From: Escherichia phage Ayreon
Sequence record: MF807953
Reading direction: 5' to 3' (one strand)
DNA: 44,708 nt
Both the position numbers and the translations under genes were made by a program. Each line of letters begins with the position of its first letter. Positions within the stretch are counted from its first letter, which is position 1. Below are positions 26,841-44,708 of the stretch, one piece after another. The notes under the pieces are model-generated. The model searched no databases, was not told the origin of the DNA, and was given only the letters and a program-made list of their open reading frames with translations.

Positions 26841-26973
26841 AACTGACATTTTGCATAGGCAGAACGCAATTATGCATATTGCGGTATAATCCCCTTCTTA
26901 AAACTGTAAGAACTGCTTGCTAATCCTTGCAGTTTTTGATTATAACATTTTTATTTGTTTATTAGGATTTTTG

Positions 26974-29106
26974 ATGGAACTGTTACAGGAACACGGGGCG
27001 ATACTTAAAGTTGTAATCATGCCTACTACTGGGGAACAAACCATAATCCAAGGTTTCGATACTGGCCTCCTCAACCCAGAGATATCCAACATTCTTTTTT
27101 TATTGGCCAAAACACCAAAAGAAATTAGTGAGATTTTTGTCAATGAAAATGATAACTTTCAGCCTACTCTAAGCGGGCTAAATCCTATTTTTTTAATATC
27201 TAAAGAAAATCTTGAAAAAATACCAGATATTTATCAAACGCCATTTTGCTTAATTTTTTGTGCTAAAGAAGATTTTTCGTATTTTTGTGCTTTAAAAAAA
27301 CATTTTGCTATACCACCTATAATTTGTTGCAATTCTAAACGCGCTGATCTACCACTTAATAAGATTAATAGTATATACTCATTTGATAAGGTGCTCTTCT
27401 CTCGGTTGAAATTCATTGAGGATAAAATAAGAAAAAATCACAGTGAAAAGAAAATATCAACGAAGTTGAAGCGAAGAGGGGCTTTATTTAATAAATCACC
27501 TTGGAGATCGACGCTTAACAATTCAACACTACCCAATGAGTTGTTAATTGAATCACTTGGCTATATGCTATCTCCACCAAAAAGAATTAAAGATGGTAGT
27601 AGCAAAAGAGAGTTTATAGAAATAATACTTCATAGCGTTGATGCATACACCGAATGTTTAAAGGAATTAGATATACCACTTCCAACGGAAGTCTTACTTT
27701 TTGCTCCGGGTATGCACTCTTTTTTATATGATAAAAATAATGACTTTTATGAGTTAATAACGGAAAATTTATCCACAATTGAGAAAAAATTCCTTATTGA
27801 TGGAGTGTTGAGGAATCCAGGCTATTCTGGAATTAGACTTGATATAAATTCAGATAGAAAAGAACTTTTTAAAAGTCCTGCTTTCCGTTACCTCACCTCA
27901 CTAAGACGAGCTGAAATGCGATTAACAACAGCTGCGATTACTTTATTTAGCATAAATAAAAAAATCCCAGCAATAAGATTGCCAAATGCAATAAATCATT
28001 ACTCCAATTATTTGAAAAATCTTGAAGATCTTGCAACTTCTTCTGGGATAAATAGTGAAGCATTCATCACTAAATCTAAAGCATTCAATACTGTTATTCG
28101 AAGAGCCCTTGGTTGCAAGTTGAGAACATATATAAGTAAAAACTATAGCGATTTGTCCTTTGTTTGTGATGTACCATTGGATTGGATTAGGTTTAATAAC
28201 ATACCTATAATGTTCAGTCATGAGATATCAAGAATAAATGCTACGCCTGGTAACGTTCTTCTACAGAGCGCCTCTGCTTTTCCGCGCGTTTTAGTAAAAG
28301 CATCTGAGTTGAGAAAGGTTTTAGTTATACGTTCTTTTGAGCCTGATGATCACTTAAAGTTCATATTAGAGAACGCAATTGAGATATTTAAAAAACAGAT
28401 GCCAGATCTTGATTGCGAGATTATTGATGTTAGATCGAAAGCTGAGTTTATTGATGCTCTAAATCAATATCAAGGTCATATTCTTGTTATGGATTGTCAT
28501 GGAAACCATGATGGCAATGGGAGTCATGGATGGTTAATAATAGGTGAGGATAAAGTGGACACTTGGAGTTTGAGAAAAATAGCAAGAATTCCTCCTATCG
28601 TAATTCTGAGTGCATGTTTAACATCTGCCCTAAGTGGTTCTCATGCCTCTGTTGCTAATGGCTTCGTTATAAGTGGTGCATTAAGTGTCATCGGAACATT
28701 ACTGCCTGTAAATGCGATAGACTCTGCTGTTTTTGTAAGTCGGTTGATCTACCGGTTTTACGAGTTTCCTTCGACGCTATCTACAAATTTTACACATGTT
28801 AATGTAAGGCTTTTTCTTTCTGTTTTTCTTAGGATGTCCTATGCAAGCGATTTAATAAGAGGATTTTTATCTGAAGATTTGATACCGAATAATTCATGGA
28901 AGAAAGATGCAGTTGATATTAACATGTATATAAACATGCTTCACCATGATTGGTATGATTATGTAATTAACAAATTGACGATGTTAACGGGGCTCACGAA
29001 AAAAGATGTACTTGATTTTATCGATAGAAAATTATTCATAACCGAAACTATGTGCTATAGCCAAATTGGATTTCCAGATGCAATCACAATTAGTCTTAAA
29101 GATTGA
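26974..29106 (+). CDS. Large cargo protein with C-terminal CHAT/caspase-like protease domain
   Basis: 711 aa from MELLQEHG. Strikingly low GC with Asn/Lys/Ile-rich composition. The C-terminal region has a caspase-fold His/Cys dyad signature: strand plus HG in ILVMDCHGNHDG and strand plus Cys in PIVILSACLTS, followed by GFVISGALSVIGTLLPVNAIDSAVFVSRLIYRFY, typical of CHAT domains. The N-terminal ~500 aa have no features I recognise. Confidence 0.65.
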   Translation: MELLQEHGAILKVVIMPTTGEQTIIQGFDTGLLNPEISNILFLLAKTPKEISEIFVNENDNFQPTLSGLNPIFLISKENLEKIPDIYQTPFCLIFCAKEDFSYFCALKKHFAIPPIICCNSKRADLPLNKINSIYSFDKVLFSRLKFIEDKIRKNHSEKKISTKLKRRGALFNKSPWRSTLNNSTLPNELLIESLGYMLSPPKRIKDGSSKREFIEIILHSVDAYTECLKELDIPLPTEVLLFAPGMHSFLYDKNNDFYELITENLSTIEKKFLIDGVLRNPGYSGIRLDINSDRKELFKSPAFRYLTSLRRAEMRLTTAAITLFSINKKIPAIRLPNAINHYSNYLKNLEDLATSSGINSEAFITKSKAFNTVIRRALGCKLRTYISKNYSDLSFVCDVPLDWIRFNNIPIMFSHEISRINATPGNVLLQSASAFPRVLVKASELRKVLVIRSFEPDDHLKFILENAIEIFKKQMPDLDCEIIDVRSKAEFIDALNQYQGHILVMDCHGNHDGNGSHGWLIIGEDKVDTWSLRKIARIPPIVILSACLTSALSGSHASVANGFVISGALSVIGTLLPVNAIDSAVFVSRLIYRFYEFPSTLSTNFTHVNVRLFLSVFLRMSYASDLIRGFLSEDLIPNNSWKKDAVDINMYINMLHHDWYDYVINKLTMLTGLTKKDVLDFIDRKLFITETMCYSQIGFPDAITISLKD

Positions 29107-35358: not shown

Positions 35359-35587
35359 TCCGTTGATCCTCAATATTTGCCGTTTGCTTCAGCGTAAAAA
35401 AACATCAATTCCTACAGTTGGGCAGTGGTACACCACACCTGCAGGGCATGTTCTACGTGTTAGCCTGGTTGACCGTGAATGCCAGAAGGTGATTTGTGAA
35501 CCGCTGGGCCGTAATTACCGCGTCAGTATGCCGCTTATAGCCTTTCGCTCCGGAAAAAACATGAAGCATCTCGGAGGTGCAGCATGA
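35351..35587 (+). CDS. Hypothetical small protein (78 aa)
   Basis: Operon-embedded ORF with overlapping start/stop junctions on both sides. Confidence 0.4.
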   Translation: MLNPLILNICRLLQRKKTSIPTVGQWYTTPAGHVLRVSLVDRECQKVICEPLGRNYRVSMPLIAFRSGKNMKHLGGAA

Positions 35588-36402
35588 GTATGGAGCTGAT
35601 GGTTAAAGCGATGAAAATTCGAGTGGGTAATCCATTGCGAAAACTGGTTCTGATCAAGCTGGCTGATAATGCCAGCGATCAGGGTGAGTGCTGGCCCAGC
35701 TACCAGCATATTGCTGACCAGTGTGAGATTAGCAAACGTTCTGTGATGAATCATATTGCGGCCCTTTGTGAGTCCGGGCTGGTAAAAAAAGTCACCCGGA
35801 AAGGTGAAAAAGGTAACTCAAGTAATATCTATCTCCTTCATCTGGATGGTGCAGGAGATTCACTAGGGGGTAGTGCAAATAATTCACTATCTGGTGCAGC
35901 AAATTCACTAGGTAGTGCAGGAGTTGCACCAGGGGGTAGTGCAGGAGATTCACCCAGAACCAGTCACTCTTTTGAACCAGTCAAAGAATCAGTCAATGAA
36001 CCAATAGCTGTTGGTGCATCAGTTGATGAGTCCGTGCGAGTTCGTTCAAACCGACCGGAATACTCTCCGGAGTTTGAGCAGGCATGGCTGGCATATCCCA
36101 AACGTGCTGGTGGCAATTCAAAATCTGCAGCCTTCAAAGCCTGGAAAGCCCGTTTGAATGAGGGGGTAAACCCCGAAACCATGCTGGAAGGTGTGAAACG
36201 CTACGCGGGCTGGGTATCTGCGATGGGTAACAGCGGCACACAATTTGTGAAACAGGCTGTCACGTTCTTTGGTCCGGATCGTCATTTCGAAGAATCCTGG
36301 GAAGTTCCTGCGGTATCTGCAGCTAGACGTGAGGACCCGTACTTCAAAGCCAGTTACGACAACGTGGACTACAGCCAGATCCCGGCAGGATTCAGGGGGT
36401 GA
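35584..36402 (+). CDS. Putative replication initiation protein (N-terminal winged-helix/HTH domain)
   Basis: 272 aa; N-terminal region (LRKLVLIKLADNASDQGECWPSYQHIADQCEISKRSVMNHIAALCESGLVKK) typical of phage replication-initiator HTH domains; C-terminal AYPKRAGGNSKSAAFKAWKAR segment. Confidence 0.55.
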   Translation: MSMELMVKAMKIRVGNPLRKLVLIKLADNASDQGECWPSYQHIADQCEISKRSVMNHIAALCESGLVKKVTRKGEKGNSSNIYLLHLDGAGDSLGGSANNSLSGAANSLGSAGVAPGGSAGDSPRTSHSFEPVKESVNEPIAVGASVDESVRVRSNRPEYSPEFEQAWLAYPKRAGGNSKSAAFKAWKARLNEGVNPETMLEGVKRYAGWVSAMGNSGTQFVKQAVTFFGPDRHFEESWEVPAVSAARREDPYFKASYDNVDYSQIPAGFRG

Positions 36403-38435: not shown

Positions 38436-39431
38436 GTGACCGTGAGAGCACTACTGACCCCTGAAATTGCCCCGCGTATGGGGATCGTATTGTTCAGGCC
38501 AGGTTCAGAGCTGATGCCCCTGTTTATGCAGGGGCGTGTCCTGCTGGAGCCTGAGCCGGAACGTTATTCATCTTTCGCCAGTGGTGCCGTTCCGGCGGCA
38601 TCACAACCGCTGGCGGATGATCCTGCCGTTCGGGCCGTGTTCCGCAATGAGGCAGTGATCCGTCGTGCTGGTGGCGTGGAATGTCTTGAAAGCTGGTTAC
38701 TTCGTGAAAAAGGCTGCCAGTGGCCTCATTCCGACTGGCACAGCGAGAACATGACCACAATGCGACACGCGCCGGGCGCAATCCGTCTGTGCTGGCACTG
38801 CGATAACCAGCTGCGCGATCAGTTCACGGAACGGCTGGAATCAATGGCAACGGATAACTGTGCCCGCTGGGTGTTGTCTGTTGTGCGTCGGGATCTCGGT
38901 TTTGATGACAGTCACGTTGTGACAATGCCGGAACTGTGCTGGTGGCTGATTCGTAATGACCTGGCGGATGCCTTACCGGAAAGTGCAGCCCGTAAGGCAC
39001 TGAGATTACCAAAGCCTGTTGTGCCGTCTGTCACCCGGGAAAGTGACCTTGTGCCTTCGGTTCCTGCCACCAGCATCATCCAGGATAAAGCGAAAAAGGT
39101 GCTGGCGCTGAAAGTGGATCCGGAGTCGCCGGAGTCTTTTATGTTACGCCCAAAACGTCGCCGCTGGGTTAATGAAAAGTACACGCGCTGGGTTAAGACA
39201 CAGCCGTGTGCATGTTGTGGAAAGCCCGCTGATGATCCCCACCACCTGATAGGTCACGGTCAGGGTGGAATGGGAACAAAAGCGCATGACCTCTTTGTGT
39301 TGCCTTTGTGCAGAAAGCATCACGACGAGCTGCATGCGGATACCGTGGCATTTGAAGAGAAGTATGGCTCTCAGCTGGAGCTGATATTTCGTTTTATCGA
39401 TCGTGCGCTGGCAATTGGCGTATTGGCGTAA
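38436..39431 (+). CDS. DUF968-like protein with C-terminal Cys/His zinc-binding HNH-like motif
   Basis: 331 aa; C-terminal CACCGKPADDPHHLIGHGQGGMGTKAHDLFVLPLCRKHHDELH motif; position in the nin-like region before Q. Confidence 0.6.
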   Translation: MTVRALLTPEIAPRMGIVLFRPGSELMPLFMQGRVLLEPEPERYSSFASGAVPAASQPLADDPAVRAVFRNEAVIRRAGGVECLESWLLREKGCQWPHSDWHSENMTTMRHAPGAIRLCWHCDNQLRDQFTERLESMATDNCARWVLSVVRRDLGFDDSHVVTMPELCWWLIRNDLADALPESAARKALRLPKPVVPSVTRESDLVPSVPATSIIQDKAKKVLALKVDPESPESFMLRPKRRRWVNEKYTRWVKTQPCACCGKPADDPHHLIGHGQGGMGTKAHDLFVLPLCRKHHDELHADTVAFEEKYGSQLELIFRFIDRALAIGVLA

Positions 39432-39444
39432 GTGGAGAACGAGC

Positions 39445-40197
39445 ATGAACCTTGAAGCCTTACCAAAATATTACTCCCCAAAATCTCCAAAATTGAGCGA
39501 TGACGCACCGGCGACAGGCTCAGGTGGTTTAACGATTACGGATGTGATGGCTGCGCAGGGGATGGTGCAGTCGAAAGCACCGCTTGGGTTTGCCTTATTC
39601 CTGGCAAAAGTTGGTGTTCAGGATCCTCAATTTGCGATTGAAGGTCTGCTCAATTACGCGATGGCACTGGATAACCCGACATTGAACAAATTGAGTGAAG
39701 AAACCCGGTTACAGATCATCCCTTACCTTGTGAATTTTGCCTTTGCTGATTATTCCAGGTCTGCGGCAAGTAAGGCTCGCTGTGAGCATTGTGCTGGTAC
39801 TGGATTTCATAATGTATTGCGCGAAGTGGTGAAACACTCCAGAAGCGGGGAATCTGTTATCAAGGAAGAGTGGGTGAAGGAACTATGTCAGCATTGTCAT
39901 GGTAAGGGAGAAGTCAGCACAGCGTGCAGAGGGTGTAAGGGTAAAGGTATTGTCCTGGATGAAAAAAGGACCCGGCTTCATGGCACGCCTGTTTATAAGA
40001 TTTGTGGGCGTTGCAATGGAAACCGGTTTAGCCGTTTACCAACCACACTGGCGCGGCATCATGTCCAGAAGCTGGTACCAGACCTGACGGATTATCAGTG
40101 GTACAAAGGATATGCAGATGTCATTGATAAACTGGTTACAAAGTGCTGGCAGGAAGAAGCATATGCAGAGATACAATTGAGAAATGTGACAAGATAA
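39445..40197 (+). CDS. Q: Late gene antiterminator Q
   Basis: 250 aa from MNLEAL with a GGAG ribosome-binding site; Cys-rich zinc-binding region CEHCAGTG...CQHCHGKGEVSTACRGCKGKG...CGRCNG; followed by a candidate pR' and tR' terminator. Confidence 0.75.
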   Translation: MNLEALPKYYSPKSPKLSDDAPATGSGGLTITDVMAAQGMVQSKAPLGFALFLAKVGVQDPQFAIEGLLNYAMALDNPTLNKLSEETRLQIIPYLVNFAFADYSRSAASKARCEHCAGTGFHNVLREVVKHSRSGESVIKEEWVKELCQHCHGKGEVSTACRGCKGKGIVLDEKRTRLHGTPVYKICGRCNGNRFSRLPTTLARHHVQKLVPDLTDYQWYKGYADVIDKLVTKCWQEEAYAEIQLRNVTR

Positions 40198-40228
40198 ATG
40201 GTTTTCGCCGAAGATGACGACATGATGC

Positions 40229-40257
40229 TTGCATTTTTCAAAAAATATGGATAAGAT
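40229..40257 (+). promoter_or_regulatory. Candidate late promoter pR' (Q-utilisation region)
   Basis: TTGCAT - 17 bp - TAAGAT between the Q stop and a strong terminator. Confidence 0.4.
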
Positions 40258-40304
40258 TTTCCCAACGATGGGCTTTGTATGTCTACCGTTGATAAGATTT
40301 AAGA

Positions 40305-40329
40305 ACCCGCCACTGAGCGGGTTTTTTTG
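40305..40329 (+). terminator. tR'-like rho-independent terminator
   Basis: Hairpin acccgc-cactga-gcgggt followed by a T7 run. Confidence 0.8.
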
Positions 40330-40486
40330 TGCCAGATGTCTCATGAAACTATGAAATGGATTGGTGCGTTAAACATTTTTTCTTATTATCTTTTAGATTT
40401 TGGAGAGATGGTTAACGTCTGTATTCCAGAAACTCGATGATTATTTAATAAATTAGTTTCAATGATGCTTCTAGGTTATGACTGTA

Positions 40487-40903
40487 ATGAAAAAGGTATT
40501 AATAGCAGCGATAGGTTTTTGTTTAGTTGGTTGTGCAGGTATGAAATTACCTGAGTATTCGCAAGTTAAAGCAAGTCCGTATTATACAGATTGCCGTGCG
40601 TTTGCCATGGATGTTTATAAAAATGATGGATACAGCAAAATTGCGAAAACTACTATCCTTAGCATGGATGATGTGAAGGCTAGATATATTGTGACAGGGT
40701 GTGTAGTTGCTATGGGGAAAAACACTGTAGAGGAAATCAAAGCTGATCTCTCTGCTAAAGGGAGTTCTTTTGGGCTTATCAGTGGAGCTTGTTCTAGTGC
40801 GGCATGTCGGGTTGATGTAGAGCAGCAAATGAACGCTTATGTACTTGGTAGTTATTATGCTGCAAATAAAAAATTCCCGGATAAAATGAAAGCAGAGTTT
40901 TAA
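40487..40903 (+). CDS. Lipoprotein (moron cargo)
   Basis: 139 aa from MKKVLIAAIGFCLVGCAG: signal peptide with lipobox LVGC; AT-rich codon usage unlike the flanking phage genes; bracketed by two copies of the same terminator hairpin. Confidence 0.7.
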   Translation: MKKVLIAAIGFCLVGCAGMKLPEYSQVKASPYYTDCRAFAMDVYKNDGYSKIAKTTILSMDDVKARYIVTGCVVAMGKNTVEEIKADLSAKGSSFGLISGACSSAACRVDVEQQMNAYVLGSYYAANKKFPDKMKAEF

Positions 40904-40980
40904 GTAAACCTTGTTTTCGATTATATGTCGAAGATAAATGTTAGTAACGGCATAATAAGTAAATATATAGCTGTGATAGC

Positions 40981-41005
40981 AACCCGCCACTGAGCGGGTT
41001 TTTTG
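40981..41005 (+). terminator. Second copy of tR'-like terminator
   Basis: About 27 bp near-identical to 40305-40329 (aacccgccactgagcgggttttttgt). Confidence 0.8.
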
Positions 41006-41102
41006 TACCTGTAAACTTGGTGCAGTACAGTAAACACGCTGGTGGTCGTGAATACTGACTTTTTATCTTGCTGGCTTTTTAGACAAGAGTTATTGGTATG
41101 TC

Positions 41103-41330
41103 ATGTTAACCAGAAGGGAAAAAGACATGCTAAAACAGCAAGATATGACAGAAACCGCCGCCGCAGTCCTTCATTTCTTACCTGCTGACAAGTGGGTAAC
41201 GCCACGCATGATGACGAGAACTACCGGAGTAAGCGAAGCCCGGTGCCAGTTAATACTGACTCAGTTAGTTCTGGCGGGTCTGGCGAAGGATAACGGCGGG
41301 TACGGGAATAAATTCAGACGCTGCCAGTAA
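41103..41330 (+). CDS. Hypothetical small protein (75 aa)
   Basis: ORF with a GAAGGG/AAAGA-type ribosome-binding region upstream, positioned ahead of the methyltransferase. Confidence 0.4.
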   Translation: MLTRREKDMLKQQDMTETAAAVLHFLPADKWVTPRMMTRTTGVSEARCQLILTQLVLAGLAKDNGGYGNKFRRCQ

Positions 41331-41480
41331 TGGCGGTTTCCTGCTGTGAAAATGGGCGGCTGGTGGGTGTTGGTAGCACCTGCCAGCCATTCGCTCATGC
41401 TTACTGGTCACAAGCGAACCATGGCCCACTGCTTTAGCGCAAAAGCAGAGTGAGCCTACCAGAGTTACGCTTACTGATCC

Positions 41481-42533
41481 ATGAAAAATACTGTAAAAAT
41501 AAACAGTGTTGATTTAATCAACGCTGATTGCCTGCATTTTATTCAGTCCCTGCCTGATGATTCCATTGACCTGATTGTTACCGATCCGCCGTACTTCAAG
41601 GTGAAACCCAACGGCTGGGACAATCAGTGGAAAGGGGACGAAGATTACCTTAAGTGGCTGGACCACTGTCTGGCCCAGTTCTGGCGGGTGTTAAAACCTG
41701 CCGGAAGCCTTTACCTGTTCTGTGGGCATCGCCTGGCATCTGATATTGAGATCATGATGCGTGAACGTTTCAACGTGCTTAACCATATCATCTGGGCGAA
41801 GCCGTCCGGACGTTGGAATGGGTGTAATAAAGAAAGTCTGCGCGCATATTTTCCTGCCACAGAGCGCGTTCTGTTTGCTGAACATTACCAGGGGCCATAT
41901 CGCGGCAAAAGTGACGGCTATGCAGCAAAAGAAAGGGAACTCAAACAGCACATAATGGCACCGCTGATATCGTATTTCAGGGATGCTCGTGCCGAACTGG
42001 GTATAACGGCAAAACAAATTGCCGAAGCCACAGGTAAGAAAAATATGGTTTCCCACTGGTTTGGTGCCAGTCAGTGGCAGTTGCCGAATGAGGCTGACTA
42101 TCGGAAGTTACAGGCACTGTTTTCCCGTATAGCGGCAGAGAAGTTTCAGGAACAACAACTGGAACAACCACACCACCAGCTGGTGGCATCTTATGATTCA
42201 CTGAATCGTAAATATTCTGAATTGCTGGATGAGTTTAAATCTCTCCGGCGCTATTTCTCCGTATCAGTCTCCGTGCCTTATACCGATGTCTGGATGCATA
42301 AACCCGTTCAGTTCTACCCGGGGAAACATCCGTGTGAGAAACCGGCGGATATGCTCAGGCAAATAATCAATGCCAGTAGTCGACCTGGTGATCTGGTTGC
42401 TGATTTTTTTATGGGATCCGGTTCCACAATAAAAGCAGCAATGGCGCTGGGGCGTCGGGCCTTAGGTGTTGAGCTTGAGTCAGAGCGGTTTAACCAGACA
42501 GTGAAAGAGATAAACGAGCTGGTGGGGAAATAA
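41481..42533 (+). CDS. DNA methyltransferase (N6-adenine/N4-cytosine amino-MTase, orphan)
   Basis: 350 aa; catalytic motif IVTDPPYF near the N-terminus and AdoMet-binding motif DFFMGSGST near the C-terminus; no restriction endonuclease partner nearby. Confidence 0.85.
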
Positions 42534-42600
42534 TCTGGTGGCCACGTCAGGTGGCCTTTTTATTTCCATTACACAGCACCCGCATCTGCGAGGTGGGGTT

Positions 42601-42816
42601 ATGAAATCCATGGATAAGTTAACAACGGGTGTCGCCTATGGCACCTCAGCAGGTAGTGCCGGGTACTGGTTTTTACAGTTGCTCGATAAAGTCACGCCCT
42701 CACAGTGGGCGGCAATAGGTGTGCTGGGTAGTCTGGTATTTGGCCTGCTGACGTACCTGACAAACCTTTATTTCAAGATTAAAGAAGATAAGCGCAAGGC
42801 TGCGAGAGGTGAATAA
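42601..42816 (+). CDS. S: Holin (phage 21 S21-type pinholin)
   Basis: 71 aa from MKSMDK (dual-start motif); sequence [62 protein letters not shown] matches my recollection of the phage 21 holin. Confidence 0.85.
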
Positions 42817-43313
42817 TGCCTCCATCATTACGAAAAGCAGTTGCTGCTGCTATTGGTGGCGGAGCAATTGCTATAGCATCAGTGTTAATCACTGGCCCAA
42901 GTGGTGACGATGGCCTGGAAGGTGTCAGCTACATACCATACAAAGATATCGTTGGCGTATGGACTGTATGTCACGGACACACCGGAAAAGACATCATGCT
43001 CGGTAAAACGTATACCGAAGCAGAATGCAAAGCCCTCCTGAATAAAGACCTTGCCACGGTTGCCAGACAAATTAACCCGTACATCAAAGTCGATATACCG
43101 GAAACAACGCGCGGCGCTCTTTACTCGTTCGTCTACAACGTGGGTGCTGGCAATTTCAGAACATCGACGCTTCTTCGCAAAATAAACCAGGGCGATATCA
43201 AAGGCGCATGTGACCAGCTACGTCGCTGGATATACGCTGGCGGTAAGCAATGGAAAGGCCTGATGACTCGTCGTGAGATTGAGCGTGAAGTCTGTTTGTG
43301 GGGGCAACAATGA
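42816..43313 (+). CDS. R: SAR endolysin (lysozyme with N-terminal signal-anchor-release domain)
   Basis: 165 aa; Gly/Ala-rich N-terminal hydrophobic SAR segment [20 protein letters not shown] followed by a lysozyme-like domain. Confidence 0.85.
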
Positions 43314-43777
43314 GCAGAGTAACCGCGATTATCTCCGCTCTGGTTATCTGCATCATCGTCTGCCTGTCGTGGGCGGTCAATCATTACCGTGATAACGCCA
43401 TCGCCTACAAAGAACAGCGAGATAAAAAAGTCAGTGAGCTGAAGCAGGCGACCGCCACCATTACTGACATGCAGCAGCGCCAGCGTTCTGCTGATGCACT
43501 CGATGCTAAATACACGAAGGAGTTAGCTGATGCGAAAGCTGAAAATGATGCTCTTCGGCGCAAGCTTGATAATGGTGGTCGGGTGTTCGTCAAAGGAAAA
43601 TGCCCTGTGCCATCCTCAGCCGAAACCTCCAGCGCCTCCGGCATGGGCAATGATGCCACCGTCGAACTCTCTCCAGTTGCTGGACGAAACGTTCTCGGTA
43701 TCCGGGACGGAATTATCCGCGACCAAACAGCACTGAGAACGCTTCAGGAATACATCAGGACGCAATGCCTTCGATGA
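43310..43777 (+). CDS. Rz: i-spanin Rz
   Basis: Start [30 protein letters not shown] matches lambda Rz; ATGA overlap with the endolysin stop. Confidence 0.85.
43530..43736 (+). CDS. Rz1: o-spanin Rz1 (lipoprotein embedded in +1 frame of Rz)
   Basis: MRKLKMML start, lipobox VVGCSS and a Pro-rich segment [11 protein letters not shown], entirely inside Rz in another frame. Confidence 0.75.
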
Positions 43778-44406
43778 TAGCGATAATTTTACTCATCATC
43801 CTTCACATCTGGCTCTGTAGACAGGATGGTGATCACTTCTGGAGTGAATCCAGATTAAACATCTCATTGCTGATGCTTGATATTGAGCATCTTGCGCGCG
43901 GTAAGGGGCTGCGTTGAGATAAGGGCCAGTCATTACAAATACCAGGATTTAGCCTCGCATTCGCGGGGCTTTTTATTGCCATTACAAAAGCCACTCCCTA
44001 CAGAGTGGCTTTGATAATGGTTTATACCCTACACGGGATAGCTTAACTGATATCCCTTTTAACGGATAAAGGTATTCAAGCCTGACACATCATGCGCTGT
44101 ATCGTCGCCGTATTCCCGTATTAACAGAGACCGTAGCCCGACGGGGAACTCCTTCTGCGCGAGTGTGCGGGAATAATCAAAAACGATGCACACCGGGTTT
44201 TTACCGCGTTTATGGTTCGCGGGTTTGTCCCTCATGCTCGCCAGTCCTGTGCGGGGGTGGAAGAAACAGGACACTTACACAGATTCTTGTGGGCACGATG
44301 CTATGCCTTTCTGGATTATCCCGATGCCATTCATGCAAGGCGTTGTATCAGACGTTCGTCAGAGCTGTCAGGCTGACGGGTCCTCCCGGTGGGGTGGCCT
44401 GCCACG

Positions 44407-44494
44407 GGGTGAAGGAACTATGTCAGCATTGTCATGGTAAGGGAGAAGTCAGCACAGCGTGCAGAGGGTGTAAGGGTAAAGGTATTGTGCTGGA
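44407..44494 (+). repeat. Displaced copy of an internal Q-gene segment
   Basis: 88 bp identical except for one mismatch to 39872-39959 (inside Q, encoding ELCQHCHGKGEVSTACRGCKGKGIVL). Confidence 0.9.
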
Positions 44495-44558
44495 GACATT
44501 ACCGGATATTCTGGAACGTGACTGCGGCCTGCAGCCTGCTGCTGTGAGCCGTGTTCAG
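44487..44558 (+). repeat. Displaced copy of an internal small-terminase gene segment
   Basis: 72 bp identical to 359-430 (inside the Nu1-like gene, encoding LETLPDILERDCGLQPAAVSRVQ); overlaps the Q copy by an 8-bp microhomology gtgctgga. Confidence 0.9.
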
Positions 44559-44604
44559 CCGTGGAAAAAGGCTAGTTTTTGAAATTTCATTCGTCATCAC
44601 CACT

Positions 44605-44640
44605 ACTGTAATGTATTGATATTACAGTGATTTTATTTTT
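44605..44640 (+). terminator. Terminal inverted repeat followed by T-rich tract
   Basis: actgtaat-gtattgat-attacagt followed by gattttattttt, in an AT-rich non-coding tail 70-100 bp before the window end. Confidence 0.3.
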
Positions 44641-44708
44641 ATGGTGTCGATTTTGATTGTTTTTTGTTCACCACTAACACCGTTTGCCTAAAGTTGTTCG
44701 CAAGATGC

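Follow-up and report, generated by a model that had tools for sequence, protein, structure and literature searches.

Cohesive-end sites of lambda-like phages and of the Ayreon group

Lambda-like phages are defined by 12-nt 5' cohesive ends that resemble those of lambda (Feiss et al., PMC4669245). Natural variation in these ends occurs at bp 7-12, Gifsy-1 for example differing at positions 8, 9 and 11, and the conserved parts of a lambda-like cos are the 7-bp cosQ, the cohesive end's left half and the CG dinucleotides at the nicks (PMC4669245). When joined, the ends of lambda read ...ACGGGTCCTTTCCGGTGATCCGACAGGTTACG in the left flank, GGGCGGCGACCT in the cohesive end and CGCGGGTTTTCGCTATTTATGAAAATTT in the right flank, the core thus standing in the context ...TTACG-GGGCGGCGACCT-CGCGG....

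The DNA analyzed here, referred to as the window, is the whole 44,708-nt record of Escherichia phage Ayreon (MF807953); features are on the + strand unless stated otherwise. In every relative of this phage that was examined, the site of interest reads ...GGGTCCT-17 bp-CCACG-GGGCGGGAGCGT-CG(T/C)GG... and is homologous to lambda cosQ-cosN. Its counterpart in a prophage of E. coli M45, ...GACGGGTCCTCCCGGTGGGGTGGCCTGCCACG followed by GGGCGGGAGCGT and CGTGGAAAAAGGCTAGTTTTTGAAATTT, aligns base for base with the right end, the 12-nt cohesive end and the left end of lambda. The core context in the relatives is ...CCACG-GGGCGGGAGCGT-CGTGG...; the cohesive end's left half, GGGCGG, is identical to that of lambda and only bp 7, 8, 9 and 11 differ. 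The large terminase carries GpA_ATPase and GpA_nuclease domains, the portal is of the lambda family, and the predicted nick lies 174 nt from the start of the small-terminase gene, compared to 178 nt in lambda. With GGGTCCT 17 bp upstream, CG nicks, a 12-nt core beginning GGGCGG, a terminase of the gpA family and a terminase-binding region of about 175 bp ahead of the small-terminase gene, the site of the relatives, which represents the state before insertion, is by its sequence of the type found in lambda, 21, N15 and Gifsy-1. It differs from lambda in that the small subunit is of the DUF1441 type and not lambda Nu1. The cohesive-end sequence of this phage group is a prediction by homology; searching the literature for the exact 12-mers returned irrelevant matches only.

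In the window itself this arrangement is interrupted. A cosQ-like heptamer GGGTCCT (44378-44384), also seen in the relatives, precedes the predicted top-strand nick by 17 bp, as it does in lambda. The left edge of cosN (44402-44409) is intact and consists of CCACG, the duplex right end of the chromosome, and GGG, the first three of the 12 cohesive-end bases. The duplex left end, CGTGGAAAAAGG..., is likewise intact together with the cosB-equivalent region (44560-44708), which reaches the small-terminase gene at position 26 after wrap-around. Between the two predicted terminase nick positions, where the two physical ends of the chromosome meet, lies a 150-nt composite (44410-44559), where the predicted cohesive end GGGCGGGAGCGT would have the 9 nt CGGGAGCGT. 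Both duplex termini, CCACG and CGTGG, are kept to the nucleotide; of the 12-nt core only GGG is retained, the other 9 predicted cohesive-end bases being replaced. In contrast to lambda, the core is split by 150 nt, and the predicted nick positions are 153 nt apart instead of the 12 nt of an intact site. No second cosN was found in the window at up to three mismatches. Judged by the presence of an intact 12-nt core between the nicks, the window as deposited lacks a functional cosN.

An inverted repeat, ACTACTGTAAT...ATTACAGTGAT (44603-44631), which is conserved in mEp460 and 569R4, also lies in the cosB-equivalent region, on the stretch from cosN to the small-terminase gene. This repeat is a candidate site for the DUF1441 small terminase or for IHF.

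Structure of the composite

The composite can be assigned to two donors in the same genome. Positions 44407-44494 copy 39872-39959, the zinc-finger CxxCxGxG segment of an antiterminator gene, with 87 of 88 bases identical; positions 44487-44558 copy 359-430 of the small-terminase gene with 72 of 72 identical (these segments are called the Q piece and the Nu1 piece below). Both repeats stop dead at these limits, with not one further base matching on either side. They are the two longest direct repeats within the 44.7-kb window, and for this reason chance is excluded as their origin. The donor gene at 39403-40197 matches Pfam Antiterm (PF03589, E 1.3e-53), identifying it as antiterminator Q, and also has a DnaJ-type CxxCxGxG zinc-finger match that is below threshold. 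The gene at 26-520 matches DUF1441 and PHROG 141, identifying it as the small terminase subunit. The first-pass annotation, made from the sequence alone, had described these two copies and their source genes, and both descriptions hold.

All three junctions of the composite carry traces of how the pieces were joined. At the first, there is a 3-nt microhomology, GGG, with Q 39872-39874. At the second, the Q and Nu1 copies overlap by 8 nt (44487-44494), where the composite reads GTGCTGGA and the Q source reads GTCCTGGA. The single mismatch of the Q piece lies here: at 44489 the composite has G, the base of the Nu1 source, and Q has C, so that the discordant base follows Nu1. The microhomology at this junction is therefore 7 of 8 nt, its longest exact run being at most 5 nt, and an 8-nt overlap with no more than one mismatch has a computed probability of about 4e-4 at a random junction. 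The overlap is as the earlier annotation gave it, and its view of this junction as microhomology-type is borne out. The third junction, which it had missed, shows a microhomology of 0-2 nt and an extra C at 44559. This base is either untemplated or part of the heptamer AGCCGTG (44557-44563), which equals Nu1 419-425; if it was re-copied from there, the heptamer could be the mark of a fourth short template switch.

Taken together, the composite consists of Q 39875-39959 and Nu1 361-430, each copied once, plus a single C; the inserted bases trace to identifiable donors in the same genome with that C as the possible exception. With identifiable donors and microhomology at the junctions, it is in its sequence a microhomology-mediated templated insertion. 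Other origins were rejected on inspection. The template and variable repeats of a DGR do not fit, as the copies are 99-100% identical and show no adenine-specific changes; CRISPR-like acquisition or a retron does not fit either, since neither a repeat-spacer arrangement nor features of a reverse transcriptase lie nearby. A search of Rfam for an RNA element at the composite gave nothing near any gathering score.

The empty site and its conservation

Phages mEp460, vB_EcoS-569R4 and PhiR47_1 align on both sides of the composite and lack the composite itself. The closest comparison is with the M45 prophage, which aligns ungapped with window 39200-44409 with 28 mismatches in 5,210 nt (99.5% identical; BLAST) and is picked up again from 44560, the flanks being ungapped. 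Between 44409 and 44560, 150 nt in the window stand against 9 nt (CGGGAGCGT) in M45, a net gain in the window of 141 nt. The order in the window is ...CCACG, then GGG, the Q piece, the Nu1 piece, C and CGTGGAAAAAGG..., compared with ...CCACG GGGCGGGAGCGT CGTGGAAAAAGG... in M45. A variant empty site ending in ...AGCCGTGG, which would dispose of the odd C, was looked for and not found.

This comparison changes the larger interpretation. It had been proposed that a deletion from mid-Q to mid-Nu1 in a second, related phage copy gave rise to the fusion. The copies are just 88 and 72 nt long, and their outer flanks are the normal cos flanks that continue into the relatives, which contradicts a large deletion. 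The Nu1 piece is identical to the gene of the window itself and two bases off that of M45 (70 of 72), so the donor was the Ayreon genome and no second related phage is called for. A tandem prophage is equally at odds with the single unit-length genome; the order of late genes before int, which had been taken as a sign of it, is the standard virion-order map and results from the authors having opened the genome at the small terminase gene. The alternative of a complex terminal structure, together with the provision that a mis-joined contig end would overturn the proposal, came close to the mark. That reading did not recognize the site as cosN, nor the replacement of 9 nt by 150 nt relative to all relatives.

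The site is under tight constraint wherever it was scanned. In IMG/VR, the cosN interval is 12 nt in 124 of 124 loci; the cohesive end is CGGGAGCGTCGC in 92 of them and CGGGAGCGGCGC in 19, the others being a few point variants. With a 91-nt query centered on cosN, unbroken alignments covering at least 80% of its length were obtained for 1,233 records of complete E. coli genomes. Scans of the gap between cosQ and I2 over lengths of 7-36 and 38-68 nt gave 1-nt spacer variants only, with cosN intact, and a search for disrupted cosN copies elsewhere with the pattern GGTGGYCTGCCACGGGGD gave only unrelated chance matches. Megablast against 50,697 phage records and 5,426 complete E. coli genomes did not recover the junction, and neither IMG/VR nor the GTDB species genomes nor the JGI metagenomes contain its exact 32-mer. 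At the protein level, Ayreon's own 94-aa protein alone spans both pieces among 5.8 billion protein clusters. Exact-sequence look-up of four versions of the ORF product gave no match, in an index that evidently lacks Ayreon's GenBank protein too.

Two other records of the group are irregular near cos. That of mEp460_4F5 (LR595868.1) has its break 5 nt to the left of where the top strand is predicted to be nicked, and its cohesive end, GGGCGGGAGCG-CGG, falls 3 nt short of the length found in the 124 IMG/VR loci and the other relatives. In mEp460_ev081 (LR597641.1), record positions 45629-45824 form a perfect 98-bp tandem duplication that starts 10 nt right of an intact cosN and covers most of the cosB-equivalent region; this could be a real cosB duplication or another finishing artifact. 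No cos anomalies like those of mEp460_4F5 and mEp460_ev081 were seen in the prophage copies examined. In the M45 alignment, 27 of the 28 mismatches over 5.2 kb are held by window 43136-43586, in the endolysin/Rz genes. This cluster indicates, from the sequence comparison, a short recombination patch in an otherwise near-identical arm.

Open reading frames across the composite

An ORF at 44163-44582, with a predicted product of 139 residues, spans cosQ, the composite and the cos left end. A version starting at an internal ATG (44298-44582) is annotated in GenBank as a 'putative late gene regulator' (protein P0001, 94 aa), which amounts to treating it as a real new regulatory gene that combines the zinc-finger segment of Q with a helix of the small terminase. 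The CxxCxGxG motifs of the Q piece could be taken in its favor, as could the reading frame: the Q piece is in the Q frame, the Nu1 piece is in the Nu1 frame, and one open frame is kept through all three junctions, the gain of 141 nt being 47 codons. The probability of this at random is about 1/27, a coincidence for which no reading offers an explanation. Against a gene stand the sequence of the product and its setting. The product contains no more than 27 of the 264 residues of Q, and Pfam gives no match, Antiterm (PF03589) included. Upstream of the composite, the variable sites of the ORF frame among 31 close relatives are distributed 9/19/16 by codon position, with no third-position bias. 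Promoter-like sites and terminator counts near the ORF are not above chance level, and a terminator-like hairpin lies upstream of it at 43951-43970. The ORF runs over cosQ and cosN, the fusion is unique among the protein clusters mentioned above, and the NCBI pipeline calls no gene at this place in the M45 prophage. It is thus hardly credible that the ORF encodes a new regulator; as the first-pass annotation had held, 44163-44582 is not a gene.

Annotators disagree on the ORFs of the spacer between Rz and cos, where 44059-44274 on the - strand competes with 44186-44440 on the + strand. The latter matches PHROG 17397 (unknown function), and its last residues are changed by the composite. The codon-position counts of these two ORFs, 15/9/19 and 2/5/9, are weak and non-significant. 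Stx phages show about 87% conservation of the segment 43978-44271.

Genome finishing and the origin of the composite

Ayreon came from pond water and was isolated on E. coli K-12; it is plaque-forming, its lysogens are inducible by UV and mitomycin C, and its particles are those of a siphovirus by TEM (PMC5764929). DNA was extracted from phage with an SDS-proteinase K protocol and sequenced on an Illumina HiSeq 2500, giving 1,282,954 reads and 3,478x coverage (PMC5764929). These published numbers imply a read length of about 121 nt, so that the Q piece (about 85 nt) and the Nu1 piece (about 70 nt) are each under one read length. The reads were assembled de novo with CLC, corrected with Pilon and linked with SSPACE, and gaps were closed automatically with GapFiller; afterwards the closed genome was linearized at the small terminase gene, the cos site upstream of it being only 'expected' (PMC5764929). 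GapFiller extends both edges of a gap one nucleotide at a time using reads with mates that map nearby, and by default accepts a minimum coverage of 2 reads per base and merges when the extensions overlap by at least 10 nt (PMC3446322).

Once the site is recognized as cosN, the reading is no longer a recombination scar; it becomes a bridge across the physical ends of the chromosome. A lambda-type terminase would not be expected to cut a cosN with a changed conserved left half and nicks 153 nt apart. Because Ayreon forms plaques, lysogenizes and is inducible, its real cosN would have to be intact; since no cos phage is viable with a broken cosN, and the one in the deposited sequence is broken, the composite is most likely a chimeric bridge from finishing. 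We place the probability that it lies outside the packaged genome and is an artifact of library preparation or finishing at about 0.8. The course of events may have been that rare chimeric molecules or reads ran past the physical ends, where genuine reads would be few or absent. The microhomologies of 3 nt and 7 of 8 nt suggest template switching or annealing at the cos ends, and the CLC/SSPACE/GapFiller pipeline would then have fixed the chimeras in the consensus before the circle was re-opened at the terminase gene. The true genome would probably be about 44,567 bp with 44407-44559 reading GGGCGGGAGCGT, and the predicted mature virion ends would be ...CCTGCCACG and 5'-GGGCGGGAGCGTCGTGG....

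Artifacts of circularization and gap closure in phage genomes have been described (PMC8785237; PMC3446322). The present case is like them in that a linear virion genome was computationally closed and then re-opened, the anomaly is located exactly at the physical termini, the pieces are shorter than a read and GapFiller accepts 2-read support. Location at the physical end of a computationally closed genome and absence from independent sequences of the locus are both marks of an artifact, and the composite has both. It differs from the usual examples, which are duplicated terminal k-mers or repeats and not a two-donor composite with microhomology, and in that the middle overlap, 8 nt with one mismatch, is under the default 10-nt merge threshold of GapFiller. 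This shortfall suggests that the chimera probably existed as DNA and was not made by software. The default overlap of SSPACE is 15 nt. The Q/Nu1 overlap is shorter than either limit, and a merge of two extension tips there by software alone is not favored. Chimeras arising in MDA are mostly inverted. The pieces here are all direct, amplification is not mentioned in the published account (PMC5764929), and an MDA origin was rejected. Several points count against a bridge artifact. A chimera of three or four junctions, all direct and adaptor-free, is unusual for a library; genuine reads across the cos junction, from ligated ends or concatemers, should win the majority vote if present; the composite survived Pilon polishing at 3,478x; and the in-frame state of all three junctions is left unaccounted for.

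Two other explanations take the composite to be real DNA of the phage. In one, the deposited sequence is correct, and the replicating genome or prophage of Ayreon truly carries the composite as a genuine scar of illegitimate recombination. The very high coverage of a Pilon-polished assembly, the clean ungapped flanks, the microhomology-type junctions and the in-frame net insertion of 141 nt are all compatible with this. Nevertheless, cosN is destroyed with no other in the window, while plaques, induction and virions require terminase to cut there; the cosN spacing is invariant in every relative scanned, and the copies show no divergence from their donors. A correct deposited sequence is accordingly very improbable. 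In the other, which is unlikely to a lesser degree, the composite would be a real molecule from an infected cell, in which unannealed cos-cut or injected ends were joined by serial template switching primed by microhomology. Either MMBIR or an alternative end-joining that makes templated insertions could have done this, with sister genomes as templates and Q copied before Nu1 or Nu1 before Q. The product would be a minor, non-packageable species in the DNA preparation that entered the consensus as the sole sequence bridging the ends, so that the deposited consensus would still be wrong, though the scar would be the trace of something that happened in the cell. It is doubtful, in particular, that the recessed 3' ends of the cos-cut or injected chromosome primed three to four template switches on sister genomes, with the filler destroying cosN.

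A cellular origin would account for several details of the sequence. Every base bar perhaps one C is templated from the same genome, there is microhomology at the first two junctions (3 nt, and 7 of 8 nt), and the AGCCGTG repeat of Nu1 419-425 at the third suggests an extra short switch. The Nu1-type discordant base would fit a nascent strand that ran from right to left and whose priming included an internal mismatch; the two junctions to the cos flanks coincide with the recessed 3'-OH ends or are no more than 3 nt away from them; and the middle junction falls short of the default merge rule of the software. The likeness to filler sequences of MMEJ, to MMBIR-FoSTeS and to short-homology illegitimate recombination in E. 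coli extends to short same-genome copies at a double-strand end, microhomology of 3-8 nt at the junctions and several consecutive switches; unlike in those cases, the product here would be unpackageable, its in-cell origin is putative, and no comparable cosN scar is seen in the prophage copies examined. Free DNA ends in the cell are exposed to RecBCD, and both termini being kept to the nucleotide is unexpected given this. Moreover, intact cos junctions would far outnumber aberrant ones in unpackaged replicating DNA and should have won the majority vote, no such scar is present in the 1,233 E. coli records aligning in one piece or in the IMG/VR scans, and chimeras made in vitro by polymerase or ligase at single-stranded cos overhangs would give the same picture. 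If the composite was made in the cell, it would be a bacterial counterpart of templated-insertion end joining in eukaryotes and a rare documented instance in E. coli of templated end joining, in several steps, at the cos ends of a phage, with a possible one-step route from an infectious phage to a packaging-dead, lysogeny-competent prophage.

Under the favored reading of a spurious bridge across the cohesive ends, MF807953 probably holds 141 extra bases inside its packaging site, and the 'putative late gene regulator' CDS would be bogus. Since protein P0001 is already in nr, the annotation error can propagate. A useful quality check for cos phages after automated circularization and gap closure would be whether cosQ, the 12-nt cosN and the CG-flanked nicks are intact.

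Other features of the window

Three iteron-like direct repeats, with a register of about 21-46 nt, are present at 35842-35953. They lie inside the replication-initiator gene 35584-36402, which has HTH_36 and DnaD_N matches; iterons inside the initiator gene are the usual lambdoid origin arrangement. Directly downstream of the integrase gene, a 729-aa ORF (26917-29106) has a weak CHAT-domain match, and its counterparts in related prophages are annotated as CHAT domain protein. This ORF may be a moron or defence gene.
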